A DNA stretch of 49,373 bases from IMG/VR virus record IMGVR_UViG_3300017613_000725, positions 1 through 49,373 of that record, one strand, 5' to 3'. The first letter of the stretch is position 1. Each line of letters starts with the position of its first letter. Below, piece by piece: positions 3,409 through 39,988 of the stretch. A program made the translations under genes and the position numbers. The notes under the pieces are model-generated. The model saw only the letters and a program-made list of their open reading frames with translations. It was not told where the DNA came from and searched no databases. This stretch comes from a virus.

Positions 3409-4251
3409 ATGAAAATTATTTTAATAGTGTTATTTTCTTTTATAACGCTTAATGCACAGAACTTGCTTTTGTTTTATGATGATGCGGGAGTTACAGTTGA
3501 TGCAGAAGCACAAGCATATTTCGATGCACTTTCCACGCCACTATCTGAAAACAGACAAGATACCATAAATCAATTTGTATTGATGTTAAAAGATTCTCTT
3601 TCAATAACAAACTTATCTGATTTCTTTTTACGATTAAATTTAGACGCTAACGAAACAGAAGAATCAAGTTTGACTGGGTTGGTTTATCCTGATTCAGCGA
3701 CAACAGAAGGCGGCTCATTAGCTTGGGCTGTTGACGTAGGATGGACTGGTTCAACAAATGTAGCGAATCATTTGAACAGTCATTTTAATCCCGCCACAGA
3801 TGCAATAATAGGTGGGCAAGATGATATTAGTTATGGCATTACATTGGCTACAAATTTAAATGGTGTAGGATATGCACTTGGTGCAGTAGGAACTCAATAT
3901 GTTTTGTTCAGACCAAGAAATAGCGGAAGTAGTGCTACTTATATAAATAATAAGAATCTAAGTGCTCAAGCTGGTATTACAACCTCAATAGGGCATCATA
4001 TTATAACTCGTACTGGTGCAAGTACGGGGGCAGGTTATGTCAATGGAACCGTCTCAACTACAATATCCACCACATCTGTAGCTGCTTCTGATATAGATAT
4101 TTATTTCTTAGCGAGTAATGGTATCGGTGGGCTTGCTTGGGTTGAAAGAGCAAGATTTATTTCCATAGGAGTTACACAAGAACAAGCAAGGAAAATAACA
4201 AATTGCATTGAATGGTATTTAGATGCCATTGGTGCAGGGATTATACCGTGA
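3409..4251 (+). CDS. secreted protein (signal peptide, Gln at +1)
   Basis: Start moved to the ATG after GAGG; MKIILIVLFSFITLNA|QNL. Confidence 0.65.
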   Translation: MKIILIVLFSFITLNAQNLLLFYDDAGVTVDAEAQAYFDALSTPLSENRQDTINQFVLMLKDSLSITNLSDFFLRLNLDANETEESSLTGLVYPDSATTEGGSLAWAVDVGWTGSTNVANHLNSHFNPATDAIIGGQDDISYGITLATNLNGVGYALGAVGTQYVLFRPRNSGSSATYINNKNLSAQAGITTSIGHHIITRTGASTGAGYVNGTVSTTISTTSVAASDIDIYFLASNGIGGLAWVERARFISIGVTQEQARKITNCIEWYLDAIGAGIIP

Positions 4252-6787: not shown

Positions 6788-6932
6788 TGAATAACTCTGA
6801 CAAGTATCATTATTTAATATCGTGTCTGCCGAGTCGCTTCTGCGTCTTGGGTAGCAAGCCAGACACTTTAGTTGCCCTCATAATTATAAAGGTTTCAGTC
6901 AGAGTTTCCTTTAATTTGTGAGGGCTTTTTTT
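6788..6932 (+). ncRNA. candidate ~145-nt structured small RNA lying between the promoter candidate and an intrinsic terminator
   Basis: Stem-loop GTGTCTG(6822-28)/CAGACAC(6860-66), then a long terminator hairpin. No credible ORF: only a 9-codon ATG ORF, and the track ORF 6810..7001(-) lacks context. Confidence 0.3.
6874..6932 (+). terminator. intrinsic terminator
   Basis: GCCCTCA(6874-80)...TGAGGGC(6919-25) with inner AAAGG/CCTTT pairing, followed by T7 (6926-32). Confidence 0.6.
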
Positions 6933-6947
6933 ATGTGGCGAAACAAA

Positions 6948-7022
6948 AAATAACTGGCGGCGAATGATATGTCTGTAACCATAGGCGATCTCTCCCAACA
7001 CAAGATGGTCAGTTTGTTATTT
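6948..7022 (+). repeat. possible outlying copy of the junction unit (AAATAAC...GTTATTT)
   Basis: 7-bp inverted repeat AAATAAC(6948-54)/GTTATTT(7016-22); GGTCAGTTTGTTAT resembles the 3' box; lies 33 nt upstream of ATG 7055. Confidence 0.3.
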
Positions 7023-9421: not shown

Positions 9422-10173
9422 CTCGATTTGAAAAGAAAATAGAGAAAGCAATAAAAGCGTTAGAGTCATTTGAGCCGAAAGATGGTTATTATGTAGCGTT
9501 CTCAGGTGGGAAGGATAGTATAGTAATTTACGATTTGGTTAAAAGGGCGGGCGTGAAGTATGATGTTCACCATCACGTTACCACAATAGACCCGCCTGAG
9601 TTAATGAGGTTTATTAAAAAAGAATACTCAGAGGTAGATAGACATAAACCTGATTTGTCAATGTTTGAATTAGTTACTAAGAAAAAATCTTTGCCAACAA
9701 GGATAGGGCGTTTTTGCTGCGAATACTTAAAAGAGAGTGGCGGGAATAATAGGGTTATCATTTTAGGGATAAGATCAGAAGAAAGCAATAGTCGTAAAGA
9801 CAGAAAATTATTTGAATGGAATACAAAGCAAAATAAATTGATGTTTAATATTATTGTAGATTGGACAGAGAAAGATGTTTGGGAGTATATAGATTCAAAC
9901 AAATTAAAATACCCAGCAAGTTATGATACTGGCAAAAATAGACTTGGTTGTATCGGATGCCCCTTTAAAGGCGGCAAAAGAATGAAGAAAGAATTTGCAG
10001 AATATCCTAATATTAAGAAGGGATATATAAAAGCAATCCAGAAAGCACAAAATAATGGCGGATTTTCTTCTTTCAACGGGCATAATGCGGAACAAATATT
10101 TGATTGGTGGACTTCTGGTTTATCAGTAAAAGATTATCTACAAACATTAAAACAAGAGACGTTAAAATTATGA
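9406..10173 (+). CDS. PAPS-reductase-like PP-loop ATP pyrophosphatase; start codon unresolved
   Basis: SGGKDS P-loop at 9502-9519, then CCEYLK and GCIGCP motifs. Frame is open from 9406. The first ATG/GTG/TTG in frame is TTG 9535, downstream of the P-loop. Confidence 0.8.
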   Translation, partial: RGAGITRFEKKIEKAIKALESFEPKDGYYVAFSGGKDSIVIYDLVKRAGVKYDVHHHVTTIDPPELMRFIKKEYSEVDRHKPDLSMFELVTKKKSLPTRIGRFCCEYLKESGGNNRVIILGIRSEESNSRKDRKLFEWNTKQNKLMFNIIVDWTEKDVWEYIDSNKLKYPASYDTGKNRLGCIGCPFKGGKRMKKEFAEYPNIKKGYIKAIQKAQNNGGFSSFNGHNAEQIFDWWTSGLSVKDYLQTLKQETLKL

Positions 10174-12554: not shown

Positions 12555-12785
12555 ATGAACGAAGCACCAAAAGAAGATGAGGTTAGTTTTTTTAACGACT
12601 TCTATGGCGAAAAAATAAATGACAACTACAACGCATTTGGCAGACACGAAGTAACTGTGTTTTATGATGACAAGATAAATAAAATTCTGGTTTGTGGTGA
12701 AGAGTGGGATGAGAATGTGCCCTTCCAGAGTAATAATGTCTATCAAAAAGCAGAACAATATCTAACGGAGAAAGGATTACTTTGA
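12555..12785 (+). CDS. hypothetical protein
   Basis: Start moved to the ATG after AAGGAGAAGG. Confidence 0.55.
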   Translation: MNEAPKEDEVSFFNDFYGEKINDNYNAFGRHEVTVFYDDKINKILVCGEEWDENVPFQSNNVYQKAEQYLTEKGLL

Positions 12786-13510
12786 AATTCTACGAGTTCA
12801 AAGAAGACGAGAAAAAAGTTGACATCTTTTCGGAAAGGTGGTATAAAATAGAAGATAAATTCTACCGGAATGTAACTACCATCTTGGGCATAATAGACAA
12901 AGGCTATAACTATGCCGAGTGGCTGAAACAAACTGGTTTCAATTCTGAGATTATAGTTGACCGGGCAGGGAAGTTCGGTACTGCTTTTCATCAGCTTGTA
13001 GAAAGATACCTATTAGAAGAAACTGTAAAGTACCACGACTTCGCTTATTTGGGAGAACAAACATCTACTGCTTTATGGGAACGCTTTATGCTATGGCTGG
13101 ACTTCTGGAAAGAATTGAATGGAAAGCACAAAGTAACCTACAAACCAGAGGGTGTTGAGTTTATTTGCCATTCAAGCAAGTATGAATATGCGGGGACGGT
13201 TGACCTTATAGCAAGGGTTGACGATATACTCACTTTATTCGATTGGAAAACGGGTAACTATGTTGGTGAAAAAGAAAAATTACAATTGACTGCTTATATG
13301 TACGCTACAAATATTGGCGAACCCCAAGCCAAAATAATTCACATACCTGCTAAGAAACCAAATAAAAAGGGGTATAGAACAATAGACGTACCTTTTGATA
13401 AAGATATGTTCGATTTGTTCTTAGCATCTAAAAAGTTATTTGATAGTCAAAACAAGGATGAGCCGAAAGTGCTTACCTTGCCACTTGAAGTAAATATAAA
13501 GGAGAAATAA
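12782..13510 (+). CDS. PD-(D/E)XK (RecB/Cas4-like) exonuclease
   Basis: GTVDLI ... DWKTG ... QLTAYMY matches RecB-family motifs II, III and QhxxY; TTG start overlapping the upstream stop. Confidence 0.65.
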   Translation: MKFYEFKEDEKKVDIFSERWYKIEDKFYRNVTTILGIIDKGYNYAEWLKQTGFNSEIIVDRAGKFGTAFHQLVERYLLEETVKYHDFAYLGEQTSTALWERFMLWLDFWKELNGKHKVTYKPEGVEFICHSSKYEYAGTVDLIARVDDILTLFDWKTGNYVGEKEKLQLTAYMYATNIGEPQAKIIHIPAKKPNKKGYRTIDVPFDKDMFDLFLASKKLFDSQNKDEPKVLTLPLEVNIKEK

Positions 13511-15350: not shown

Positions 15351-15420
15351 ACCCAATAAATTTATCAAATAATGAAACTACTAATAATATTATTCCCGGT
15401 TAAGAAAGGTGCGAAATACG

Positions 15421-16179
15421 ATGCCTAAAGACCCAGCATTCTTATTTTATTACCAAGATTTTTTAGTAGGCACGTCATTTTTAACAAACGAAGAAACTGG
15501 GGCATATATTAGAATATTAGCACACTTAGCCGATAAAGAGGTGTTGGACGAAGAACATATGATAAACATATGTATAACACAGAATATATGGGATTCTATT
15601 AAAAGTAAATTTGTAGTAGATAATGAAGGCAATTTTTATAATGAAAGATTAAGAGAAGAGTCTATTAAACGCAGGGAATACGCAGAAAGTAGAAGAAAAA
15701 ACAGGTTAGGGAAATCAAAATCATATGATAAACATATGGAAAATGGAAATGGAAATGAAGATAGAATTAAAGAATTAAAGAATGATAAGAATAAACACAG
15801 GGGGGAGTTTTTTGAAAATCTTTTTAATCTCTATCTGTTAGAATTTGTTAATAAACTTTCTTTAGAGACTTGGAAAGAGTGGGTAAGTTACCGGCGGGAG
15901 ATAAAAAAGAAGCTAACTAAATCTATGGCTGAAAAACAATTAAAGTTTTTAGTGCTACAAGGCGACCCCACTGGGTGTATAAACGAATCAATAAAGAATG
16001 GCTGGGCTGGCTTGTTCGAGTTAAAAAACAACCAATCAGTGAAACCGAAGATTGAGGGGACGGGCAGACGGGTGGCTTCGTATGAACAAACACAGAAGTT
16101 ATTTAGGGAAAATGAAGAAGCATTAAAAAAACAAGGCAAGTGGGACGGGGCAATAAAAACAGAAAATAAAGAAAGCTAA
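15421..16179 (+). CDS. DUF1376-like replication-associated protein
   Basis: PKDPAFLFYYQDFLVGTSFLTNEETGAYIRIL matches the DUF1376 N-terminal signature; start set at ATG 15421. Confidence 0.55.
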   Translation: MPKDPAFLFYYQDFLVGTSFLTNEETGAYIRILAHLADKEVLDEEHMINICITQNIWDSIKSKFVVDNEGNFYNERLREESIKRREYAESRRKNRLGKSKSYDKHMENGNGNEDRIKELKNDKNKHRGEFFENLFNLYLLEFVNKLSLETWKEWVSYRREIKKKLTKSMAEKQLKFLVLQGDPTGCINESIKNGWAGLFELKNNQSVKPKIEGTGRRVASYEQTQKLFRENEEALKKQGKWDGAIKTENKES

Positions 16180-16264
16180 AACATTTTAAGGAGATTAGCA
16201 GTGTGGCAAATAAACCGCACTGAAATTATGAACTTAAATAAATATTTTAATAACAAAAATGCCG

Positions 16265-16307
16265 AATCAAATAACTTGTCAGCTTTGAGTTGCTGGTTAG
16301 TTTGATT
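16265..16307 (+). repeat. junction hairpin with 3' box (copy E1)
   Basis: AATCAAATAAC...CAGC-N8-GCTG-GTTAGTTTGATT; 3' box TTGTCAGCTTTGAGTTGCTGGTTAG (16276-16300). Preceded by hairpin CAGTGTGG-caaataaa-CCGCACTG (16199-16222). Confidence 0.6.
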
Positions 16308-16325: not shown

Positions 16326-16430
16326 ATGCTACACTTAACAGCTTTAGAATTAAATTCTTTAGGGTTCAAACAAAAGATTATAGATGGTTGGGTTAAAATA
16401 AAATCATTAATTGACGAAGCGTCCTGCTAA
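16326..16430 (+). CDS. 34-aa hypothetical protein
   Basis: GGGAGAA SD; the TAA stop forms part of the CTAACGG 5' box. Confidence 0.35.
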   Translation: MLHLTALELNSLGFKQKIIDGWVKIKSLIDEASC

Positions 16431-16551
16431 CGGTAGGGGCTTAAAGCGCAACGAGAAATCAGAGTAAATATTGAATTATGAATAACACTAAAAACATAAA
16501 AACCAAAACAAAGGAGACAACGAAAGTTGTCGACTTTGAAGCCTTTGTTAG
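16427..16551 (+). repeat. junction unit A (CTAAC...GTTAG, 125 nt)
   Basis: 5' CTAACGGTAGGGGCTTAA (16427-44); 3' box TTGTCGACTTTGAAGCCTTTGTTAG (16527-51) inside the 5' end of CDS 16478. Confidence 0.55.
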
Positions 16552-16774
16552 AATTTTTTGGGCGATAATAAACCCAGTAATTTGGAGATTAGGTAGAAAG
16601 CATAAGTGGGTGAGAGACAAATATAGAAGGATAAGAAAAGGTAAGTATTTATGGGGCATTATGGGGGCTATTGTTGATTATGAATCATCAGATAATGCCG
16701 AGTGTAAACCAGACCCAGAATTTGAAAAGTATATGAAAAGAATTTTTGAATATAAAAGCCCAAAACAATTATAA
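16478..16774 (+). CDS. hypothetical protein
   Basis: Track ORF; stop TAA embedded in TATAACGG. Confidence 0.6.
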   Translation: MNNTKNIKTKTKETTKVVDFEAFVRIFWAIINPVIWRLGRKHKWVRDKYRRIRKGKYLWGIMGAIVDYESSDNAECKPDPEFEKYMKRIFEYKSPKQL

Positions 16775-16859
16775 CGGTTGGCAAATAATGCGCAGCGAAG
16801 TAATTAAAATACCAAATCGGGAGACAGCTTTAGCTGTCGCTTTGATTTGATGGTTATAA
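16769..16859 (+). repeat. junction unit B (TTATAAC...GTTATAA, 91 nt)
   Basis: Perfect 7-bp terminal inverted repeat; inner hairpin CAAATC..GACAGC-ttta-GCTGTC..GATTTG; contains GGCAAATAA. Confidence 0.65.
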
Positions 16860-16881
16860 AATTATTAGATGGAATAATAAA

Positions 16882-17061
16882 ATGAATTGCCCAGAATGTG
16901 AAAAAGAAATGGAACAGATAGATACTACTTATTCTAATGTTAATACAGAGAGAGCGAAAAAAGAACAACACACTGGTAATATTTATAGATGCGATGACTG
17001 TGATTTACTTTGGTTAGAAAACTTATTAAATAATGGAATATTAGAAGCGTGGGCTTACTAA
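16882..17061 (+). CDS. 59-aa zinc-ribbon protein
   Basis: CPECEK...CDDCD; below the track cutoff. Confidence 0.55.
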   Translation: MNCPECEKEMEQIDTTYSNVNTERAKKEQHTGNIYRCDDCDLLWLENLLNNGILEAWAY

Positions 17062-17066
17062 TAATT

Positions 17067-17195
17067 TTATAACGGCTATCATCACTTGCCGCCGAACTTC
17101 AAAAATAAGGAAAACTAAAATGGAAAGCAAAACATCTTCCTCTAATTCAGAAGCGCAGACTGCTATAGGCGGTCAAGTGGATGAATTGGTTATAC
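17067..17195 (+). repeat. junction unit C (TTATAAC...GTTATAC, 129 nt)
   Basis: 5' TATAACGGC + CGGC-N11-GCCG hairpin; 3' box GGTCAAGTGGATGAATTGGTTATAC falls in codons 18-26 of CDS 17120. Confidence 0.55.
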
Positions 17196-17398
17196 TGCGG
17201 AAAGGAAAATGGAATGATAAATTATTAAATAAATTAATAGAAGATTGGAAAAGTTTTGGATGGAGATTAAGACTTTTAAACCAAGATCCTGGTGATGAAA
17301 ATTATCACCTTGCCAATATTGTCTTAAATCATTTAATACAGCACGAACCAGAAAAGTTTAAAGATATAAGAAAAAAACATTGTCTTACATTTAAATAA
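17120..17398 (+). CDS. hypothetical protein whose N-terminal leader is homologous to that of CDS 20330
   Basis: AAGGAA SD; MESKTSSSNSEAQTAIGGQVDELVILRKG compared with MSDKNENNNSELTEPTGEGQVELLVMLRP. Confidence 0.6.
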   Translation: MESKTSSSNSEAQTAIGGQVDELVILRKGKWNDKLLNKLIEDWKSFGWRLRLLNQDPGDENYHLANIVLNHLIQHEPEKFKDIRKKHCLTFK

Positions 17399-17404
17399 AG
17401 AGCA

Positions 17405-17462
17405 GTATAACGGCTAACATAAGCGGTGCGCTGTTTGCATCCGCTTGATGTATTTGTTATAC
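17405..17462 (+). repeat. junction unit D (GTATAAC...GTTATAC, 58 nt compound hairpin)
   Basis: Outer 7-bp stem; inner ACATAAGCGG / CCGCTT(g)ATGT stem around a 14-nt loop. Confidence 0.7.
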
Positions 17463-17483
17463 ACCGAAACGAAAGGATTGGAC

Positions 17484-17720
17484 ATGAAGCCATTAGACTT
17501 TATAAGAGTCAAAGAAACTGGTAGTATAGGTATGATAACAGAAGTTTCAACAACACAAGGGATTTATTCTGCATCCGTTGAATTTCTAAATTGTTTTACA
17601 GGAGAAAAAACTGCTTGGTGGAATGATGATGAATTTGAAATTATTGATAACTTACCAGATTTATTGGCAAGAGAATTAAAACATCCATTTGGAAATGATT
17701 CTTTACAACCATTCAAATAG
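17484..17720 (+). CDS. hypothetical protein
   Basis: Start moved to the ATG after AAAGGA; the track TTG start lies inside unit D. Confidence 0.55.
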   Translation: MKPLDFIRVKETGSIGMITEVSTTQGIYSASVEFLNCFTGEKTAWWNDDEFEIIDNLPDLLARELKHPFGNDSLQPFK

Positions 17721-17722
17721 GT

Positions 17723-17843
17723 GTATAACGGCAGGGGCTTAACCGGTTGTGAAAATAGAAAGGGATAAAATGATAATAACAATTAAAGACGAATTACCAG
17801 AAGATGAAATTAAACGTATTGAACAGGTTGAACTTAGTTATAT
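17723..17843 (+). repeat. junction unit E (GTATAAC...GTTATAT, 121 nt)
   Basis: 5' GTATAACGGCAGGGGCTTAAC, a 21-nt sequence identical to 19912-19932; 3' box CAGGTTGAACTTAGTTATAT inside the 5' end of the methyltransferase CDS. Confidence 0.55.
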
Positions 17844-18564
17844 GTACGGTGGAGAAAAAATGGGAGTTACTTATAATAATTTCAATATTAACAGTCCGGT
17901 TGAAGCCTTGGTTAGTTTGCCATACTATGAAGAAGATGGGATAACTATATACAACGCAGATTGCCGAATAATGATGCAAGCATTACGCCCAAGTTGGATT
18001 ATTACCGATCCGCCTTATGGAATAAACTATGATGGCTCTGGATATAAAAAGTGGAGTGGGCAGAAACAGACTTGGGATAAAATTAAGAACGATGATGGAT
18101 GTTATGATTTAGAATTTCTATTTAAGGCGGAAGGGAATAAGGTGGTTTTTGGGGCGGACAATTTTATAAACTTTATAACAAGTAAAGGAAGTTGGATAAT
18201 TTGGGATAAACGGGTTAATGATAAAAACGATAAAATGTTTGGCAATCCGATTGAAATGGCTTGGAATAGTTTGGAGGGATTACACAAGATTTATAGGATA
18301 CAGCACGGCGGAGTAGTTAACGCTGATTCGATTTATGGGAATAATGAAAAAAGAGTACACCCGACACAAAAACCAGTGAGGCTATTTTATAAAGTTATTG
18401 AAGATTTTACAGAGCAGAATGATTTTATACTTGACCCGTTTATGGGAAGTGGAACGACTTTAATAGCCGCACGTAAACTTGGGCGTAAGGCAACGGGAAT
18501 TGAAATTAATAAAAAATATTGTGATATAGCAATAAGACGATTAAGCCAAATGGAAATGTTTTGA
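17770..18564 (+). CDS. DNA methyltransferase, N6_N4_Mtase family (DPPY type, probably m6A)
   Basis: ITDPPYG (motif IV), HPTQKP, DPFMGSGTT (motif I) in beta-class order. Confidence 0.9.
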   Translation: MIITIKDELPEDEIKRIEQVELSYMYGGEKMGVTYNNFNINSPVEALVSLPYYEEDGITIYNADCRIMMQALRPSWIITDPPYGINYDGSGYKKWSGQKQTWDKIKNDDGCYDLEFLFKAEGNKVVFGADNFINFITSKGSWIIWDKRVNDKNDKMFGNPIEMAWNSLEGLHKIYRIQHGGVVNADSIYGNNEKRVHPTQKPVRLFYKVIEDFTEQNDFILDPFMGSGTTLIAARKLGRKATGIEINKKYCDIAIRRLSQMEMF

Positions 18565-18576
18565 GAATAGGACAAA

Positions 18577-18630
18577 CTAACAATAAGCTCACCTGCATCG
18601 CCTTGCGATGTCTGGTGGAGCGATAGTTAG
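18577..18630 (+). repeat. junction unit J (CTAAC...GTTAG, 54-nt compound hairpin)
   Basis: CTAAC/GTTAG, CTCACC/GGTG(G)AG and CATCGC-ctt-GCGATG nested stems. Confidence 0.65.
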
Positions 18631-18652
18631 AAACTATTTTAAGGAGTAAATA

Positions 18653-18877
18653 ATGACAGGGAAAGAAATGTTAAAAATGTGGCTCATTGGGAATGCGGGG
18701 ATAGAGCTTACCGAAGGGCTGATTGAAACCAAAGTCTATCAAGACCAGTGGAAATTCGGGCTTCATTATGAACCAGGTACTCTTTCTCGTTATTTCAGAG
18801 ATGTTAGAGATAATTTAGGGAAGTTCACTTGTAGGGAAGTTGAAAACCGAAAATATAAAACCTGGATTGTGGTGTGA
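18653..18877 (+). CDS. hypothetical protein
   Basis: AAGGAG SD. Confidence 0.6.
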   Translation: MTGKEMLKMWLIGNAGIELTEGLIETKVYQDQWKFGLHYEPGTLSRYFRDVRDNLGKFTCREVENRKYKTWIVV

Positions 18878-19266
18878 AAGAGAAAACTCACAAACAACTC
18901 ATTAAGGACTTAGATGCGATTTACTCAAAGTACATTCGCAAGCAAGCCGTTTACAATAGTGAGGGATTGGCTAAGTGTTACACCTGCGATCAAGTCAAGA
19001 GCTGGAAGTCAATGGATTGCGGGCATTATGTTTCCAGGAGGATTTTATCAACGAGATTTTTCGAGAAGAATACAAAAATTCAGTGTAAAAAATGTAATGT
19101 TTTCAGTGAAGGCAATAAACCACGCTTTGCTATTGAACTCCAGAAAGAATACGGCAAGGGGGTGCTTGAAGAACTTGATAGCTTATCCCGAATATTGGTT
19201 AAGTATGATAGAAACAAATTACAAAATATGATATTTTACTATAAAAAGAAGTTTGAGGCAATATGA
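18874..19266 (+). CDS. NinG-like recombination-associated protein
   Basis: CYTCDQ...CGHYVSRR...RFFEKNTKIQCKKCNVFSEGN resembles the lambda NinG family pattern; GTG start overlaps the upstream stop. Confidence 0.5.
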   Translation: MKEKTHKQLIKDLDAIYSKYIRKQAVYNSEGLAKCYTCDQVKSWKSMDCGHYVSRRILSTRFFEKNTKIQCKKCNVFSEGNKPRFAIELQKEYGKGVLEELDSLSRILVKYDRNKLQNMIFYYKKKFEAI

Positions 19267-19620: not shown

Positions 19621-19917
19621 ATGCACGAAATAATAAATATAAGATGTGAGTTTTGTGGTAAACCAAGACAGAGCGATGGCTACCACGGTTTGATGGTTTG
19701 TTGTAAAAATCCTAAATTGACCGAAGCTGCAAGCGAGGTCAATGTTGATTTGCTGGTTAGACCTAAAATTGCGGAATGGATTGATAATAAAATAAGAAAA
19801 AATTTAGAATTTGAAGTATATGCCAGATTAGATGAACGTGATTGGGGAAGATTTAGAGGGAAGCAGGAATTATTGGATGAACTTAAAGAGATGATTGAAA
19901 GCAATTTTACGGTATAA
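19621..19917 (+). CDS. hypothetical protein, paralogue of 19961..20278
   Basis: Shares LTEAASEVNVD at the same offset from the start; stop TAA lies inside TATAACGG. Confidence 0.6.
   Translation: MHEIINIRCEFCGKPRQSDGYHGLMVCCKNPKLTEAASEVNVDLLVRPKIAEWIDNKIRKNLEFEVYARLDERDWGRFRGKQELLDELKEMIESNFTV
19716..19775 (+). repeat. R1: intragenic repeat with hairpin TTGACC-N14-GGTCAA and 3' box
   Basis: 35 nt (19716-19750) identical to 20056-20090; similarity continues for about 60 nt. Confidence 0.9.
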
Positions 19918-19938
19918 CGGCAGGGGCTTAACTTGCCG
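19912..19938 (+). repeat. 5' box GTATAACGGCAGGGGCTTAAC with CGGCA/TGCCG hairpin
   Basis: 21-nt exact copy of 17723-17743. Confidence 0.85.
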
Positions 19939-19960
19939 AGCATAAACATAGGAGATTAGA

Positions 19961-20278
19961 ATGGATATAGAAAAAATAAGAGAAGAATTTTATAATGATT
20001 TTGGTGATTTGAAAGGTTTTAGTAAAAGCATTATGTGGAATTGGATAAAAACCAGATTGACCGAAGCTGCAAGCGAGGTCAATGTTGATTCGCAAGTTAG
20101 CCCTAAAATTGTGGACTTTGGACATTCTGATTTACCAAAAGAAGAACGTAATAGAATTATTCTACTTGCTATTGATAATACCATTAACCCCAAAAGAAAG
20201 ATAACCTTTGAACAAGCAGATTGGTTACGGTTTATATCTGTATTAAGAAAAGAAGGCTGGAAAATTGTGAAGTGTTAG
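19961..20278 (+). CDS. hypothetical protein, paralogue of 19621..19917
   Basis: GGAG SD; conserved LTEAASEVNVD segment. Confidence 0.6.
   Translation: MDIEKIREEFYNDFGDLKGFSKSIMWNWIKTRLTEAASEVNVDSQVSPKIVDFGHSDLPKEERNRIILLAIDNTINPKRKITFEQADWLRFISVLRKEGWKIVKC
20056..20115 (+). repeat. R2: second copy of the intragenic repeat
   Basis: Exactly 340 bp from R1; both copies begin 95 nt after their own ATG. Confidence 0.9.
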
Positions 20279-20284
20279 CAATTA

Positions 20285-20316
20285 AACCTAACGGTTAGGC
20301 AAATAACCTGCCTACC
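20285..20316 (+). repeat. junction element ACCTAAC-G-GTTAGGC plus hairpin with GGCAAATAA loop
   Basis: CCTAAC/GTTAGG palindrome; GGT(T)AGGCA-aataacc-TGCCTACC stem. Confidence 0.6.
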
Positions 20317-20329
20317 AAAATAAGAAGAT

Positions 20330-21142
20330 ATGTCTGATAAAAATGAAAATAATAATTCAGAACTGACCGAGCCAACAGGCGAAGGTCAGGTTGAGTTGCT
20401 TGTTATGTTGCGCCCGCTTCTTTACAAAATACACAATGAAGATTGTAGAGAAACTTTAGCAAAGCTACCGGCAGAGAGTATTGATTTAATAGTAACAAGC
20501 CCGCCTTATAATAAAAAGAGTGTGAACAGGAAATGTGGGAAAACTGATAGCTGGATGAAGGCGAATATAAATTATGGAACTTATAATGATGATTTACCAG
20601 AGAATGAATACCAAGAATGGCAAAAGAAAGTATTGAGGGAAATGGTGCGGGTGATAAAGCCCGAAGGAAGTATTTTTTATAACCATAAAGTTAGGATAAT
20701 AAACCACAGAGCAATAATACCAACAGAGTGGTTAAATGAATTTAATATACGGCAAGTTTTGATTTGGGATAGGGGTAATTCGCCACAGATAGCACCTATC
20801 CGATGGCTACCAACGACAGAATATATTTACTGGATTACAAAAACAAATACACAGCCTAAATTTTATAAACGTTCAAAGCATTTAGCGGAAGTATTGAGAA
20901 TATCTGCGAAACCCACAAATGACCATCCCGCACCGTTCCCTGAAGAATTGGTAGAAACGTTAATATTAAACACAACAGATGGAAGCGATGTAGTCTATGA
21001 CCCATTTAGTGGAAGTGGGACAGCCTGTAGAGTCGCAGACAGATTGGGGCGGGCTTGGTTTGGGAGTGAAATATCAGAGAGGTATTGCTCGGTAGCTTTG
21101 CGGAATATAAAAAGTGATTTATTTACTAAGGCGACAACATAA
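20330..21142 (+). CDS. DNA methyltransferase, N6_N4_Mtase family (SPPY type, possibly m4C); alternative start 20405
   Basis: VTSPPYN, HPAPFPEEL, DPFSGSGT. The 25-codon N-terminal extension consists of the repeat element. Confidence 0.9.
   Translation: MSDKNENNNSELTEPTGEGQVELLVMLRPLLYKIHNEDCRETLAKLPAESIDLIVTSPPYNKKSVNRKCGKTDSWMKANINYGTYNDDLPENEYQEWQKKVLREMVRVIKPEGSIFYNHKVRIINHRAIIPTEWLNEFNIRQVLIWDRGNSPQIAPIRWLPTTEYIYWITKTNTQPKFYKRSKHLAEVLRISAKPTNDHPAPFPEELVETLILNTTDGSDVVYDPFSGSGTACRVADRLGRAWFGSEISERYCSVALRNIKSDLFTKATT
20353..20407 (+). repeat. M2: repeat element inside the 5' end of the methyltransferase ORF
   Basis: TAATTCAGAA + CTGACC-N15-GGTCAG + TTGAGTTGCTTGTTATG. The stem differs from R1/R2 by a compensatory T:A to C:G change. 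Confidence 0.7.
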
Positions 21143-21213
21143 CGTACAAGCTAAACTGCAACGAAGCGAAAATCGAGGACACAGTAAGTTGTCAGATTTG
21201 AGCGGTTGGTTAG
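21137..21213 (+). repeat. junction unit H (ACATAAC...GTTAG)
   Basis: Stop TAA lies in the ATAACG box; hairpin AAATC..GACA-N8-TGTC..GATTT; 3' box GAGCGGTTGGTTAG. Confidence 0.55.
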
Positions 21214-21227
21214 AAAGGAGATTAACA

Positions 21228-29010: not shown

Positions 29011-29208
29011 ATGAAGCCCAGGATAAAGATAAGGCGGACAGACCCCATTAAGAGTCCATTTCGGTTTCTTGATATGGACGGGGAATATTTAGATTTTGAT
29101 TTTTTGTCAGAGGAGGAACAATTAAAAAAATTAACTGAGTGTCTGGGATTTTTAGAATGCAAAACCCTAACAAGGAAAGAACTTAAAGAACAATATAATA
29201 TAGAATAA
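29011..29208 (+). CDS. hypothetical protein
   Basis: Track ORF. Confidence 0.5.
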   Translation: MKPRIKIRRTDPIKSPFRFLDMDGEYLDFDFLSEEEQLKKLTECLGFLECKTLTRKELKEQYNIE

Positions 29209-29235
29209 CTTTTAATTAAAATACATAGCAAGGAA

Positions 29236-29252
29236 GTTCCCAATTTGGGAAC
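29236..29252. repeat. 17-bp palindrome, GTTCCCAA-t-TTGGGAAC
   Basis: Read directly; lies 65 nt upstream of the terL start. Confidence 0.8.
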
Positions 29253-29316: not shown

Positions 29317-30852
29317 ATGCAATTAAGCCCAGAAGAAATAAAACGGGAATTAAAGAACGATTTACTATTGTTCGGGAGAACGATAAGCCCCGCAGCTTTC
29401 GGGCTACCTTCCCCCGAATTCCATTGTGAATTAGCCGACTTATTTATGGACAGGGCTGAAACAAGAATAGCGATAGAAGCTCCTCGTGGATATGCGAAAA
29501 GTACGCTTTGTATTTTTACTGTTCTACATCATCTGATGTTTGACGAGGGGAGTAAGTATGTTGTTATCCAGTCTAAAACACAAAGGGAAGCTAAAAAACG
29601 TCTTGGGGCGATAAAAAATATAATAGAATATTCGGGAGCATTTAGAGAGTTATTCGGATATATGGGTATGCAGGTGGCAAAGACTTGGAGAGAAGATTCC
29701 ATTGTGCTTCCTGATGGCAATACGATTGAAGCTAAGGGATACGGACAGCCCGTAAGAGGTGGTTTGAGTGAGGATTGGGCGAGAGTTACACTTTATTATC
29801 TGGATGACCCCGAAGATGAGGATAACACCAAGACTAAAGACGCTATGGAGGACAATCTCAAGAAATTCTTATCAGCAATCCCTGGTTTGGAAAAGAAAAC
29901 AGGCAGGTGCATAGTAGTAGGAACTCCGATAAATCAAAGTTGTCTTGTGGAGAAATTAAGAAAGATGGGCGGTTGGGTTTTCAAACACTATCAAGCCGTT
30001 AACGAAAAAACCAAAGAAGTCTTGTGGGAAGAAATGGAAACCTACGAGGAGTTAATGCGGGAAAAAGAAGACCACATTTCTATCGGCAAGGTTTCGATGT
30101 GGTATTCTGAAAAGCAATGTATTATCACCGGGGACGAAGATGCTTTATTTGAAGAGCAGGACATAAGATGGTGGGACGGATACCTTAAAACTGAAGGCGA
30201 AGATTCATTCCTTCACATCACTCACCAGAACAGACGTAAAAACGCAAATAATATTTGGGAAATGATATTGTTAGAGAACGAGCGGGTTATTCCCGTTAAT
30301 ACATTTATCGGCGTTGACCCTGCTTCATCTGAAAGAAGGGGTGCTGATTTTTCTACCACCGTTCCGATAGCTTATGATGAACACAAGAATATTTATGCGC
30401 TTCCTTATTATGAAAAGAGAGTGCGCCCTACCGTACACGCAAGGCAGATACAGGATAAATTTTTAGAAATAAGACCCAAAAAAACTTACATAGAATCAGT
30501 TGCTTACCAGGAATCATTAAGAGCTATGATGAGAGAGTGGATGGAAGATACTGATGAATATATACCGGGCATAGAGAAAAGATGGCAGCCGAGGCAGGAG
30601 AAGAACGAGAGGTTAAGCGAACTTCAGAGATTTACAAAGAGCAAGAGATTGCATCTCCAGCCGGGTATGAACCGGTTATTAGATGAGATGCTGCTGTTCC
30701 CAAGGGGTAATAAGAACCTGTTAGATGGTTTGTGGTATGCCACAAGGTCTTTAAGAGTGCCTGACCACAGTACAGCAGGCGAAGAAGATGACGATAAATA
30801 TATGGCAATACAATACTACCAAACTCAGGAATCACGCTGGATGGCAAAATGA
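29317..30852 (+). CDS. terL: terminase large subunit
   Basis: Walker A-like PRGYAKST; 511 aa; directly upstream of the portal. Start set at ATG 29317 because the track TTG start lies inside the palindrome/terminator. Confidence 0.85.
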   Translation: MQLSPEEIKRELKNDLLLFGRTISPAAFGLPSPEFHCELADLFMDRAETRIAIEAPRGYAKSTLCIFTVLHHLMFDEGSKYVVIQSKTQREAKKRLGAIKNIIEYSGAFRELFGYMGMQVAKTWREDSIVLPDGNTIEAKGYGQPVRGGLSEDWARVTLYYLDDPEDEDNTKTKDAMEDNLKKFLSAIPGLEKKTGRCIVVGTPINQSCLVEKLRKMGGWVFKHYQAVNEKTKEVLWEEMETYEELMREKEDHISIGKVSMWYSEKQCIITGDEDALFEEQDIRWWDGYLKTEGEDSFLHITHQNRRKNANNIWEMILLENERVIPVNTFIGVDPASSERRGADFSTTVPIAYDEHKNIYALPYYEKRVRPTVHARQIQDKFLEIRPKKTYIESVAYQESLRAMMREWMEDTDEYIPGIEKRWQPRQEKNERLSELQRFTKSKRLHLQPGMNRLLDEMLLFPRGNKNLLDGLWYATRSLRVPDHSTAGEEDDDKYMAIQYYQTQESRWMAK

Positions 30853-31037
30853 AAACAACATATTGTCCAGATTGTAAGAAAGACGTAATCACAAGATACA
30901 GATTTTTAACGAACTGGTGTTCTGTTTGTGACAACCCCCTGACAGAACCGATAAAACTAAATCTCCGTTTTATCAAGGAAGCGGGGAAAGACGAGAGACA
31001 CGCAAAAATGGCGAAAGAATTTGAAAGGTTCGAGTGA
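30849..31037 (+). CDS. zinc-ribbon protein
   Basis: CPDCKK...CSVCDN; ATGA overlap. Confidence 0.55.
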   Translation: MKTTYCPDCKKDVITRYRFLTNWCSVCDNPLTEPIKLNLRFIKEAGKDERHAKMAKEFERFE

Positions 31038-36978: not shown

Positions 36979-37452
36979 ATGATAAAGGTTAATCACTTAT
37001 CACAATATTATCCATTATTTAAGGATAAGACGGTAGTTGATATAGGATGCAACGCAGGGGTGATAACAGAAAGAATAGCAGAATACGCAGAAAAAGTTTA
37101 CGGTGTAGAAAAAGACATTAAATGGGTAAGAGAAACACCCAAAGACAACATAGAGTATGTGAACCTTCCGATAGGAGAGTTCCTTATGAGAGGGTGCGAT
37201 TATAATGCGGCTTATGCGTCTTGTGTTTTATACTATCTAACGAATGCAGAAATAAATTTAATAGAAAAAATATTATTCCCTAAGTGTGATTTGATAATGT
37301 TTGTTAGTTACGAAGTCAAGCCAGACTTAGGAAATAATGGTTTATTCCTTAGTAAGTGGCAGAATATAAATAACTGGTTACAGAAAAACGGATTCAAAAC
37401 AGAAGTAAAGGACGATCATCTTAAATGGGCGACAATAATAGGGACGAAATAG
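36979..37452 (+). CDS. class I SAM-dependent methyltransferase (FkbM-like motif I)
   Basis: VVDIGCNAGVITERIA...VYGVEKD. Confidence 0.6.
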   Translation: MIKVNHLSQYYPLFKDKTVVDIGCNAGVITERIAEYAEKVYGVEKDIKWVRETPKDNIEYVNLPIGEFLMRGCDYNAAYASCVLYYLTNAEINLIEKILFPKCDLIMFVSYEVKPDLGNNGLFLSKWQNINNWLQKNGFKTEVKDDHLKWATIIGTK

Positions 37453-38870
37453 AACTAAAAATTAGTTTTGTAGTCGTGGATTCACGTTCAGACAAACACC
37501 CCGAATGGGTGAGTGTTTGTATTGAGTCGATCCGAAAGCAAAATATACCGGTAGAGCTTATAATAGTTAATAACGTAGGCAGGAAGAAATCCATAGGCGA
37601 GTGTTATAATCGGGGAGTTCGAGAGGCTAAGTGTGATCTGGTAGTCTTCGTAGGAGATGATGATTATGTGAGTTTCGATTACGCTGAGATTTTATGGCGA
37701 TGGTTTAATGATGAAGAAGTTAAAAAGAATAATGTAGTCAGGGTATCGACTTGTATGACTGCTTTCGATGAAGAAACGGGGAACAGTTTCCCCTTACAAA
37801 GAGAATCTACGGGTTGCTGGAAGCGTGACTATTTGTTAGAACATCCTTTTAATGAAGAATTGGAAAGCGGAGTTGACAGGGAGCTTGTAGAGGAAACGCA
37901 GAAGCGAAACGATATGATGGTGTCTATAAATTATTATCACGGATATTTTTATAGAAAACACGAAGATTATTCTTGTGCGGGTGATTTGATATTCAAGTTA
38001 CCAGATGAGCCACCCGACTATTACTTTGTTTCCTCCAACAGGATATTCTTAAAACCCATTACCGATAGGTTAGAGAATGTATTTGTTGATGGGGGCTTCA
38101 ATCCGAAGTTCGCCGAGAAAGCGAAGGTAGTTTGGGTTGAGTGGGCTAATAAGAAAGCCATTGATGTATCACACGCCAAATTAGATGCGGTTAAGATTTT
38201 AAGAGCACACGCATTTGAAGCGTTTACAGAATACGCACACGAAATAAACTGGAACGGATTTGATTATGTGATATTTATAGACGATTACATCAAAGATTAT
38301 GTGGAAAGACAATTCGGCAAAGTAAATGGTGCAGTGGTTATGCCTAATGGGGTTGACTTAGAAAAGTTTACGCTTCCGAATGATTTCCGAAAAAACAACA
38401 AAATAGCATACGCAGGTTATCTAACGAGAAAGAAGGGCATAGGAGAACTTCTTTTATTAGCTAAATCATTCCCTGAGTATGAATTTCATTTAGCGGGGAA
38501 GTATCAGGAGAACGATATAGCAGATTGGTTTAATCATAAGAAACCCGACAATGTATTTATCTACCCGTGGCAATACGAGGAAGCTATGAATGAGTTCTAC
38601 CAAGACAAGACATTCATCTTAAACACCTCAATGAGAGAATCGCAAGCTATGACGTTGATGGAAGGAATGGCTTGCGGATTAAAACCTTTGGTGGCAGATT
38701 GGATAGGAGCTAAAGAAATATATAACGGTGGGGTGTACCAGAATATACAAGAGTTCGGGGAACTTTTAGAAGGTTCATATGAGCCAGAAAAGTATAGAGA
38801 GTTCGTGAAAGAAAATTACGACTTTGAAAACACATATAAAGAAATTGAAAAATTATTAGAGGCTAAATAA
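37425..38870 (+). CDS. two-domain glycosyltransferase (N-terminal GT2-like, C-terminal GT4/GT1-like)
   Basis: ISFVVVDSRSD...IIVNN...VFVGDDDY (GT-A with a DxD motif); YAGYLTRKKGIGELL...ESQAMTLMEGMACGLKPLV (GT-B with an E-x7-E region). Confidence 0.75.
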   Translation: MGDNNRDEIELKISFVVVDSRSDKHPEWVSVCIESIRKQNIPVELIIVNNVGRKKSIGECYNRGVREAKCDLVVFVGDDDYVSFDYAEILWRWFNDEEVKKNNVVRVSTCMTAFDEETGNSFPLQRESTGCWKRDYLLEHPFNEELESGVDRELVEETQKRNDMMVSINYYHGYFYRKHEDYSCAGDLIFKLPDEPPDYYFVSSNRIFLKPITDRLENVFVDGGFNPKFAEKAKVVWVEWANKKAIDVSHAKLDAVKILRAHAFEAFTEYAHEINWNGFDYVIFIDDYIKDYVERQFGKVNGAVVMPNGVDLEKFTLPNDFRKNNKIAYAGYLTRKKGIGELLLLAKSFPEYEFHLAGKYQENDIADWFNHKKPDNVFIYPWQYEEAMNEFYQDKTFILNTSMRESQAMTLMEGMACGLKPLVADWIGAKEIYNGGVYQNIQEFGELLEGSYEPEKYREFVKENYDFENTYKEIEKLLEAK

Positions 38871-39988
38871 TGGCAACATTTGGAGAGTTAGTGCAGGACA
38901 GAGTTGGGACTTTCTCAAACACCGACTTATTAGACCACGCACTTACCGCAGCCGGGAGGATAGTCATAGACCACCTATTTATGAAGTATGGTGAGAATAA
39001 CTTCAGATTAGAACTCTATTATACTGACAAAACAGATTCAGACGGCTCTACCGGGATAGCTGTAACTGGTGGCAGGGTTATAGGCGCACATAAATCAGGT
39101 TACAAAGCAACTAAAATAGATTATAAAGACAAAGCTCTGTTTAGTCTTGCGACTTCGATTTATAACGCAGTAGCAACAAGCCCTGTATATTATTTAGAGA
39201 AGACCAAGGGTTACGTATTACCGGGTGGTGGTACTTTAAATTGGGTAGCTTACCCCACAGTAGGAAACGGTGATAGTGCAATATCAAATTTCCCACCCGA
39301 AGGTTATCCCGTTGTGGTGTTATATGCCTCTATCCAGGCGCAGATGGCGATTATACAAACATTAGTAGCGACTACAATGAGTGGTATAACGTGGGCGGCT
39401 GTAACTGACGTGGCTACTGTACCCTCGGCGCCCGCATTTACTTGGACAGACGCAGTAATAGGGACTTATACAGCGACTACGTTAGGGACTACGGCAACAG
39501 TACCTACATATACCAAGCCAACGCAAACATTTGATATGACGCAATTCGAGACGTTCCTTGAAACCAGCAAAGACGTTGAGCTTGCCCAGGCGCAATTAGG
39601 AAGATTAAAGAATGAAATAGAAGAATATCAATTAGATATTCAGAATGAGTTGAATGAGTTTAATAAGGAAATGGCTGCTTACCAAGGCGTTATACAACAG
39701 GAAATCGAACAGGCAAGATTAACACAAAACCAAATATTAAAATTAGCTGAAGACACCACTGAATTAAATAAATTCAACGAGTTAAAGACACTTGAAGAGC
39801 AGATAGCAGAATATCAAGGTGATTTAGGAAAATATCAAGGCGATATACAGGATTATTCAGCGAAGGTTAATGAAGAAGCCCAGAGAGTGAACTCGTTAGT
39901 AAGCCAATATTCATCTATGGTACAGCCTTATCTGTCGGTTTTAGAAAGTTTAAGACAAGAATATACAACCTTGCTGGAGACATTATGA
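38870..39988 (+). CDS. virion structural protein with a C-terminal coiled coil
   Basis: Long heptad region (ELAQAQLGRLKNEIEEYQLDIQNELNEF...); position in the structural module. Confidence 0.5.
   Translation: MATFGELVQDRVGTFSNTDLLDHALTAAGRIVIDHLFMKYGENNFRLELYYTDKTDSDGSTGIAVTGGRVIGAHKSGYKATKIDYKDKALFSLATSIYNAVATSPVYYLEKTKGYVLPGGGTLNWVAYPTVGNGDSAISNFPPEGYPVVVLYASIQAQMAIIQTLVATTMSGITWAAVTDVATVPSAPAFTWTDAVIGTYTATTLGTTATVPTYTKPTQTFDMTQFETFLETSKDVELAQAQLGRLKNEIEEYQLDIQNELNEFNKEMAAYQGVIQQEIEQARLTQNQILKLAEDTTELNKFNELKTLEEQIAEYQGDLGKYQGDIQDYSAKVNEEAQRVNSLVSQYSSMVQPYLSVLESLRQEYTTLLETL

Follow-up and report, generated by a model that had tools for sequence, protein, structure and literature searches.

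An array of attC-like hairpin units, probably recombination sites, in the nin-like region of an uncultured marine podovirus-like phage

What are the imperfect inverted repeats that separate the small genes of an uncultured marine phage, and do they correspond to the attC recombination sites of integrons? The question is raised by IMG/VR virus record IMGVR_UViG_3300017613_000725, whose entire stretch of 49,373 nucleotides is termed the window here. This complete metagenomic contig of 49.4 kb, from Joint Genome Institute (JGI) sample 3300017527, belongs to a podovirus-like phage that encodes a large terminase, a P22-type portal and an SU10-type capsid protein; its GC content is 37.6% and its Shine-Dalgarno (SD) sites are strong. 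Between 16.2 and 21.2 kb, it carries eight well-formed imperfect hairpin units and a number of degenerate remnants, all on the plus (sense) strand and all at boundaries of open reading frames (ORFs), dispersed among ~10 small accessory genes. This array lies in a nin-like part of the genome, where small ORFs of one orientation follow an O-like replication gene (15409-16179) and precede the late region. It is real and statistically solid as an attC-like array, and its units are probably attC-type structure-specific recombination sites that form a cluster of attC sites with no integron integrase (CALIN) in the nin-like region of this phage. A sequence-only reading had pointed to inverted-repeat boxes of attC-like size and geometry at this locus; the attC-like hairpins are borne out by our analysis, and several details of the units had to be redrawn.

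On the plus strand, each unit begins with a box of the form xxxTAAC (the analogue of R'), which is followed by a spacer of 6-9 nt, a stem of 3 bp, another of 5-7 bp and further pairs. The loop measures 5 to ~140 nt in the window and up to ~340 nt in relatives. On the 3' side come a bulged T (or other base), 6-7 nt, a bulged G, 3 bp, a 5-nt spacer and a box of the form GTTAxxx (the analogue of R''). A folded attC bottom strand is built in this way, as can be seen from that of the aadA1 attC site (ATCTAAC GCTTGA GTT AAGCCG CGCCGC..GCGGCG T CGGCTT G AAC GAATT GTTAGAC), for which we used a sequence 100% identical to R100 and thousands of plasmids. The units were compared with attC sites by means of a rigid bottom-strand template (5-nt 3' spacer, 3 bp, 1 bulge, 5-7 bp, 0-1 bulge, 4 bp) and of two covariance models, R1 and R2, that served as surrogates for the curated attC model. 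R1 was built from the bottom strands of ten real attC sites, namely those of aadA7, aadA1, dfrA1, TJE1 (two), PH101 (two) and the integron of Shewanella phage M16-3 (three). R2 was built from 16 phage units alone, a set comprising the eight units of the window and eight from the related loci L035, L036 and L040. Loops were trimmed to GAAA in both models because a MAFFT alignment of untrimmed attC sites was too gappy in the middle of the site to be modelled. The eight units of the window, which measure 58, 58, 79, 91, 123, 129, 129 and 195 nt over their 7-nt boxes, are the following.

16425-16553, plus strand: unit A, TGCTAAC ... GTTAGAA, with an 8-nt 5' spacer, three template mismatches, an arm duplex of -18.2 kcal/mol and an R2 score of 38.6 bits (E 5e-6); the TAA of its 5' box terminates ORF 16326-16430, ATG 16478 lies in the loop, and the 3' arm is translated (VDFEAFVR).
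16769-16859, plus strand: unit B, TTATAAC ... GTTATAA, with an 8-nt 5' spacer, bulges G and T, one template mismatch and an R2 score of 55.4 bits (E 5e-10); non-coding, with the stop codon of ORF 16478-16774 as the TAA of its 5' box and an SD and ATG 16882 coming next.
17067-17195, plus strand: unit C, TTATAAC GGCTAT CAT CACTTG CCGC ... GCGG T CAAGTG G ATG AATTG GTTATAC, with a 6-nt 5' spacer, zero template mismatches and an R2 score of 43.6 bits; its geometry is wholly that of a canonical attC bottom strand and is also its minimum-energy structure as DNA, and an SD and ATG 17120 lie in the loop.
17405-17462, plus strand: unit D, GTATAAC GGCTAA CAT AAGCGG ... T CCGCTT G ATG TATTT GTTATAC, with scores of 44.7 bits (R1) and 49.6 bits (R2) and a DNA fold z-score of -4.6; 58 nt, canonical and non-coding.
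17723-17917, plus strand: unit E, GTATAAC GGCAGGGG CTT AACCGG ... T CCGGTT G AAG CCTTG GTTAGTT, with zero template mismatches when partnered with 17911 and an arm duplex of -22.5 kcal/mol; its loop of ~140 nt contains an SD and ATG 17770, the start of the N-terminal extension of methyltransferase 1.
18575-18632, plus strand: unit F, AACTAAC AATAAG CTC ACCTG ... T CTGGT G GAG CGATA GTTAGAA, with one template mismatch, scores of 32.9 bits (R2, E 1e-4) and 16.2 bits (R1, E 0.2) and a DNA fold z-score of -5.5; 58 nt and non-coding.
20286-20408, plus strand: unit H, ACCTAAC ... GG T CAGGTT G AGT TGCTT GTTATGT, with one template mismatch and an R2 score of 43.8 bits (E 3e-7); ATG 20330 lies in the loop, and an alignment of homologues places the start of methyltransferase 2 homologues at the ATG within GTTATG (20405-20407).
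21137-21215, plus strand: unit J, ACATAAC GTACAA GCT AAA CTG CAAC ... GTTG T CAG A TTT G AGC GGTTG GTTAGAA, with an R2 score of 36.5 bits (E 1.5e-5); the last unit of the array, with a thermodynamically weak fold and the stop codon of methyltransferase 2 as its TAA.

Because TAAC and GTTA are common 4-mers, it was the inner sequence of the units that was tested. When arm-pairing scores were calculated for all 497 TAAC...GTTA pairs on the plus strand, the top five, which all map to 16.4-20.4 kb, were units C, E, F, A and H. The template, applied to the plus strand of the window, fits six units with at most one mismatch and three of them (C, D and E) with none; the first bulge is G in all six and the second is T in five. 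In Markov-1 random sequences, 0.05 perfect fits (versus three seen) and 1.85 fits with at most one mismatch (versus six) are expected by chance. With the 3' spacer fixed at 5 nt, every member of the 16-unit set fits with 0-3 mismatches, including seven with none, whereas the opposite strand gives 2-6. Real attC sites behave similarly, with 0-4 mismatches on bottom strands and mostly 4-6 on top strands (one Shewanella site has 1), and the bottom strands of aadA7, aadA1, dfrA1, TJE1_2 and one Shewanella site fit as well as the phage units do. In all 16 units TAAC and GTTA are invariant and paired, and the first bulge is a G located exactly 8 nt before GTTA; the second is a T in nine. The 5' spacer is 6 nt long in C, D, F, J and L035_1 and 7-9 nt long, partly paired with the 3' spacer, in the other eleven, as compared with 5-6 nt in real attC sites. 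A comparison of the folding energies of the two strands, which the sequence-only reading had proposed as a check, favours the plus strand in six of seven units as DNA, but by such a slight margin that it is not decisive.

The arms also covary. Across the 16 units, 86% of the cells are paired versus 69% in shuffled alignments, the number of double-change cells is 61 versus 24, and the covariation score is 0.448 versus 0.147; none of 500 shuffles reaches the observed pairing or the observed score, and slid controls pair in only 27-40%. Covariation is strong further in, with compensatory changes on both sides in 10 of the 13 inner-arm pairs. The earlier proposal that the boxes pair holds for the invariant TAAC/GTTA core, but its claim that the flanking base changes in step is weak, since each of the three columns outside these 4 bp is paired in no more than 7-11 of the 16 units. 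The alignment used for these counts was fitted to the template, and for this reason the chance rate was taken from the separate Markov-1 template scan.

Recognition between the units and bona fide attC sites is mutual. With R1, the plus strand of unit D scores 44.7 bits (E 2.5e-8 to 9e-8) and its minus strand 14.0 bits, and held-out real sites of the Shewanella integron score ~30-42 bits. Conversely, R2 scores the bottom strand of the aadA1 attC at 47.3 bits (E 4e-8) and attC sites of the Shewanella integron at 28.5 and 22.4 bits. It also finds all three attC sites of TJE1 (30.6-36.7 bits) and three sites of PH101 (21-24 bits), in both cases on the experimentally defined bottom strand. No R2 match lies in the window outside 16.2-21.3 kb, and there are none in a 383-kb control made up of 49 loci from more distant NinG phages. 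One further locus, found as a chance pattern match, is a contig of a Thiotrichaceae metagenome-assembled genome (MAG; CAZYYW010000004.1, 5300-6300), in which a ~60-nt repeat, GTTTGAAATAAGCGGCGTG...CCGATTAATTGA...GTTATAC, flanks small reverse-oriented ORFs. One copy of the repeat scores 23.3 bits with R2, and the flanked ORFs, judged by eye, may include toxin-antitoxin-like genes. This locus looks like a chromosomal integron cassette array.

Most boxes are where the sequence-only reading had placed them: those of units A (CTAAC 16427/GTTAG 16547), B (16769/16853), C (17068/17189), D (17405/17456) and F (18577/18626) are unchanged, and so is the position of units at the 3' ends of co-oriented ORFs. 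Unit E, however, had been given GTTATA 17837 as its partner, which yields four mismatches and hence is at background; the true partner is GTTAG 17911, with none. The 15-nt palindrome at 20285-20299 that had been read as a junction is not a unit, and its left box at 20289 pairs with GTTATG 20402 in unit H. The site at 21137, thought to pair through TAAC/GTTA alone, has complete arms (unit J), whereas the supposed unit at 19912 is an orphan left half with no fitting right arm, its best template partner having at least three mismatches. The length range of 54-129 nt becomes 58-195 nt, with seven units of the window at 58-129 nt and unit E at 195 nt; units in relatives reach 200, 213 and 387 nt, the last of these across a scaffold gap. 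Finally, an outlying pair at 6948/7016 is at background on both strands (four mismatches) and is matched by neither model. In the surrounding region (6906-7022), the stretch TTCCTTTAATTTGTGAGGGCTTTTTTTAT (6906-6934) ends in a run of T nucleotides and the RNA fold is -16.1 kcal/mol on the plus strand versus -9.6 kcal/mol on the minus strand; this may be an ordinary terminator region.

The degenerate remnants in and next to the array are listed here.

16193-16302, plus strand: degenerate unit U0, a member of direct-repeat family D6, with three template mismatches and an R2 score of 17.7 bits (E 0.41); its 3' arm GTCAGCTTTGAGTTGCTGGTTAG (16278-16300) is well formed, and its 5' box, past the stop codon of the O-like replication gene, has decayed to GCTAAAAC.
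19701-19775, plus strand: solo 3' arm GTCAATGTTGATTTGCTGGTTAG (19738-19760) within ORF 19621-19917, copy 1 of a 75-nt direct repeat (D1), homologous to L036 3891-3924.
19912-19940, plus strand: orphan 5' half-unit GTATAACGGCAGGGGCTTAAC, identical to the 5' half of unit E (repeat D8) and homologous to the L036 unit at 3738-3823.
20041-20115, plus strand: solo 3' arm GTCAATGTTGATTCGCAAGTTAG (20078-20100) within ORF 19961-20278, copy 2 of the 75-nt repeat.

The two copies of the 75-nt repeat are 85% identical and lie ~100 nt into neighbouring ORFs. Each consists of a solo 3' arm and a conserved downstream segment, CCTAAAATTG, that encodes the peptide PKI. The same module is present at L036 3887-3950 and, with a different arm, at L036 4505-4535.

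Relatives of the locus were sought with the NinG gene of the array as an anchor. Metagenomes contain NinG relatives of 70-82% identity, and the close ones came from the protein database only. Units of the same kind are found downstream of NinG, with different genes around them, in L035 (three units), L036 (four) and L040 (one). Other relatives, L075, L074 and L039 among them, have packed genes and no units, and L039 and L040 share 88% identity in NinG. Scans of IMG/VR and JGI metagenomes anchored on NinG gave mostly relatives of 32-45% identity, again without units. In the INPHARED phage collection there is no match to 15-22 kb at the nucleotide level or to the portal in a protein search, and all NinG relatives found there have <31% identity. 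In relatives without units, the slot after NinG holds Nucleotid_trans, FdtA and Methyltransf_21/23 genes and a faint sulfotransferase match (L034, MAG JAAEOX010000222.1, 1208-6335; L069/L070, 1527-3901), and these sugar- or methyl-modifying genes suggest that the slot carries quite different accessory cargo in different lineages.

The comparison with L036 also bears on the order of the modules, a polymorphism that the sequence-only reading had suggested looking for. The segment at 19912-20100 is homologous to L036 3738-3940, and the ORF bodies differ beyond the 3' box. The 3' end of ORF 19621-19917 together with TATAACGG matches L036 4639-4665 (92.6% over 27 nt), and the similarity ends after the box. 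In the window these two shared modules are arranged X-G, whereas L036 has them as G-other-X. Because the protein similarities of the shared modules are weak (pairwise E 5e-4 and 0.011), the order is taken as supporting evidence only. The contexts of the closest methyltransferase homologues (L101 and L102) contain no units, and they provide no independent case of the same cassette elsewhere. Strand-specific fit to the template, cross-recognition by R1 and R2 and the occurrence of units beside different genes in relatives together support the attC analogy proposed earlier. A separate search with the pattern TAACGGYAGGGGCTTAA gave one match in IMG/VR, in a coding sequence of an unrelated phage (two contigs) and consistent with chance, and 19 single matches in unrelated taxa among 185,579 genomes, with no array and no clue to the host.

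The genes carried between the units, and the NinG gene embedded among them, are as follows.

16326-16430, 16478-16774, 16882-17061, 17120-17398 and 17484-17720, plus strand: small cargo ORFs, one per unit interval, from the ORF list and its translations; none has a PHROG match, and no function is assigned.
17770-18564, plus strand: N6/N4 DNA methyltransferase 1, cargo (PHROG 67, E 9e-45; PF01555 in the precomputed Pfam annotation of JGI).
18874-19266, plus strand: NinG/Rap junction-specific endonuclease (PHROG 5034, E 7e-25; PF05766).
20330-21142, plus strand: N6/N4 DNA methyltransferase 2, cargo (PF01555, E 2e-39; core from 20405).

As previously noted for this DNA, no integron integrase is encoded: no tyrosine recombinase was found in the window, with no Phage_integrase or IntI match in the tested window ORFs of at least 145 amino acids and no integrase in the precomputed JGI Pfam annotation for two 20-kb stretches (~7-29 kb of the window). 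The array is without intI, attI and a Pc promoter, is preceded by the O-like replication gene, and falls outside the definition of a complete integron. A PD-(D/E)XK nuclease is encoded upstream of it, at 12782-13510. Within NinG there is a 105-amino-acid ORF in an alternative frame (18914-19231, plus strand) that is open in relatives, with 59% identity to L035 and 40% to L034 in an all-against-all blastp comparison; its conservation could simply be that of the NinG nucleotides. Elsewhere in the window, a two-domain glycosyltransferase (families GT2 and GT1) at 37425-38870, among the structural genes, and a gene of the 3'-phosphoadenosine-5'-phosphosulfate (PAPS) reductase family at 9535-10173, in the early region, are accessory functions of an unusual kind for so small a podovirus-like phage.

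Several units overlap with translated sequence. Their loops often hold an SD and an ATG from which the reading frame continues through the 3' arm. All 3' arms of the window that fall inside an ORF share one reading frame, in which the GTT of the box is a valine codon (6 of 6 cases: 16547, 17189, 17911, 19756, 20096 and 20402), giving peptides such as VDFEAFVR, QVDELVI, PVEALVS and NVDLLVR. Two of the three frames of the arm are open and yet one is always used, which suggests selection for translatability of the arm. In five cases (unit H of the window, three units of L036 and that of L040), the 3' box itself includes a start codon, as GTTATG. Homologues of methyltransferase 2 (62-71% identical, 226-246 amino acids) start exactly at ATG 20405 and lack the 25-residue leader.

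How might such sites work? By analogy with integrons, we infer the acting recombinase, its identity and the position of the crossover. The plus strand would fold when single-stranded, and an integron-type tyrosine recombinase would bind the R and L boxes, with the bulged bases selecting the strand; because no integrase is encoded, this enzyme would have to be an IntI supplied by the host. Cleavage would occur in the 5' box of the folding strand (TAA|C), in keeping with the crossover position within the box that is established for attC sites in integrons. Given cleavage at this point, the mobile module would consist of a unit and its downstream gene or genes, up to the next TAA, which is often a stop codon. 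Excision, insertion or exchange of these modules would then be possible. With cargo that is mainly orphan DNA methyltransferases and small ORFs, the array would represent an exchangeable store of accessory, probably anti-restriction, genes.

A number of observations weigh against this interpretation. The scan with an attC covariance model that had been proposed as a check was performed with the surrogate R1, which detects unit D strongly and unit F marginally (16.2 bits, E 0.2) and leaves the other six units of the window below threshold. Half of the units have a 5' spacer of 8-9 nt versus 5-6 nt in real attC sites, and the DNA minimum-energy fold has the attC shape in C, D and F only, with J not being stable. 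Sites of attC type are usually ~57-141 nt long with a variable terminal structure, and loops of at least 140 nt exceed their usual sizes. The half units and hybrid units (19912, 19738 and 20078) and the exchanges at 3' boxes are not what one IntI crossover in the 5' box would be expected to yield. In 16 of 16 units, the strand that resembles an attC bottom strand has the sense of the mRNA, which would also suit a constraint on RNA or coding, and the fixed frame in which 3' arms are translated suits such a constraint equally well. The contig of one relative is binned with an alphaproteobacterial MAG, and integrons are extremely rare in Alphaproteobacteria (PMC9024848). Lastly, site P12002L_attC1 of a Polaribacter phage, the only tested phage site of long-spacer architecture (8 nt in the 5' spacer by our parse), was the one tested site that failed with IntI1 (PMC9892861).

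The strand bias leads directly to the possibility that the units are RNA-level cis elements of a polycistronic early or middle mRNA and that their likeness to attC sites is due to convergence or exaptation. Hairpins that span an upstream stop codon and a downstream ribosome-binding site or start codon could be RNase III-like processing sites, 3'-end stabilisers or translational couplers that bring UAA beside AUG (GUUAUG). The sequence-only reading had included this caveat, which still stands and is somewhat sharpened by the mRNA sense of the better-fitting strand in every unit. By the template, the sense strand fits and folds better in all 16 units, and by DNA energy it folds better in 6 of 7. 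G.T pairs outnumber A.C mismatches in the stems by 18:6, 5' boxes often carry a stop codon and five 3' boxes a start codon, and the SD and ATG in the loops and single-frame translation of the 3' arms (6 of 6 in the window) also agree with such a role. However, a generic hairpin needs neither invariant AAC/GTT boxes nor a bulged G at 8 nt nor a bulged T, and it is these boxes and bulges that enable a model of the units to recognise real DNA attC sites, and vice versa. The related, validated sites of TJE1 are antisense to their genes, no Rfam family matches at its gathering score, and several long-loop units lack long-range structure in their minimum-energy fold. Terminator-like sites number 4 versus 4.2 expected, none of them spans a whole unit, and no T-runs follow the stems. 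We consider a function in RNA rather unlikely on this evidence, but worth keeping in mind. Promoters or terminators as an explanation were dismissed because neither is enriched, and Pasteurellaceae or Neisseria uptake sequences, considered for the GC-rich cores, are absent.

Alternatively, the units might be passive boundaries or linkers, or selfish palindromes resembling miniature inverted-repeat transposable elements (MITEs) or repetitive extragenic palindromic (REP) sequences, with mosaic exchange resulting from homologous recombination by phage enzymes (the PD-(D/E)XK nuclease and NinG/Rap) and no site-specific recombinase involved. A nin-like mosaic zone with NinG/Rap inside it and the nuclease upstream is consistent with this, and half units, hybrid units, the 75-nt repeat in neighbouring ORFs and the short, highly similar segments shared with L036 at both box positions are all in agreement. 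But homologous recombination needs identity, whereas the arms differ among units and covary within them, and conserved bulges with exact spacings point to recognition of a folded structure by a protein. Target-site duplications are also absent, as are genes for a transposase or a RAYT-like protein, and the more distant NinG phages have mosaic nin regions without units. This explanation therefore appears quite improbable. To a cassette system that belongs to the phage itself and merely resembles attC we give equally little credence. Here the coding-strand hairpins, with their extended 5' spacer, would be cut or resolved not by a host IntI but by a phage enzyme, the candidate being NinG/Rap, which is embedded in every array, possibly together with the nuclease at 12782-13510, and the units would double as portable translation-initiation or leader-peptide modules fused in frame to captured genes; in a variant of this scheme, the phage, itself without an integrase, would enter a host integron as a giant cassette by means of its attC sites.

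If the units are indeed active attC-type sites, this phage lineage would store its accessory genes, anti-restriction methyltransferases among them, as exchangeable cassettes compatible with the integron machinery of bacteria, and genes would have a direct path for moving between phages and integrons in the marine environment. The natural variants, with canonical and extended spacers, short and very long loops and half sites, are ready substrates for examining how much IntI tolerates. The array also raises the question of why the recombinogenic-looking strand is the coding strand, and is translated.

Phage T7 offers one known system for comparison, as hairpins processed by RNase III lie between its early genes. 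Like the units, they are imperfect, have an internal loop and bulges, and are located on the sense strand between co-transcribed genes. Neither AAC/GTT boxes nor attC-like bulge spacing is present in the T7 sites, whereas the units of the window are recognised by models of DNA attC sites. Integron attC sites (59-base elements) of mobile and sedentary chromosomal integrons, for example those of aadA1 and aadA7, are a second system for comparison. Both they and the units have AAC/GTT R boxes and one site per gene boundary, and the units also have a putative second (L) stem past an unpaired 5-nt spacer. The extrahelical arrangement T-6-G-8-GTTA is shared by aadA1 and units B, C, D and E, and in F it is one base shorter. 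In both, sequence is variable and structure is conserved, and covariance models detect them mutually. The differences are the lack of intI, attI and Pc in the window, its 5' spacers of often 8-9 nt versus 5-6 nt, some far longer sites, and the orientation of the bottom-strand-like strand, which is coding in the window and antisense to the cassette ORFs in a class 1 integron (L037) and in the Shewanella phage integron (L079).

The closest counterparts are the CALINs of phages. A CALIN is defined as at least two clustered attC sites with no intI nearby (PMC9024848), and the window has eight sites in 4.8 kb with no integrase found, which constitute a CALIN on condition that attC status is granted to them. 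In a screen of 10,705 phage genomes, Qi et al. 2023 (PMC9892861) identified 17 CALINs, for which at least two predicted sites were required; those shown hold ~2-3. In the same study, IntI1 recombined five of six tested phage attC sites, with bottom strands performing better than top strands, and DNA methyltransferases were among the phage cassettes. Like these CALINs, the window has attC-like hairpins between co-oriented small accessory genes, no integron integrase, and orphan DNA methyltransferases as cargo. The orientation of its units corresponds to that of Pseudoalteromonas phage H101/PH101, where the validated bottom strand is the gene-sense strand, and differs from that of TJE1, where it is antisense to the genes. 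P12002L resembles the window in having sense-strand units of the form CTAACGG...GTTAGG with an 8-nt 5' spacer in a methyltransferase/NinG region. In that phage (L038), gaps of ~80-135 nt near methyltransferase, Mom-like and NinG genes (29166-29247, 29974-30077, 30849-30964, 37200-37304, 38016-38117 and 38817-38949) contain gene-sense (C/G)TAAC...GTTA(C/G)(C/G) hairpins, more than the two sites assayed, and only 30005-30059 scored with R2 (19.7 bits). In comparison with the known phage CALINs, the array in the window is larger, with eight well-formed sites and remnants in 5 kb, and differs in its many long loops that hold translation starts and in 3' arms that are translated as an N-terminal leader. 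CALINs on phages have thus been published before, and the array of the window is probably a large new example of this rare class.

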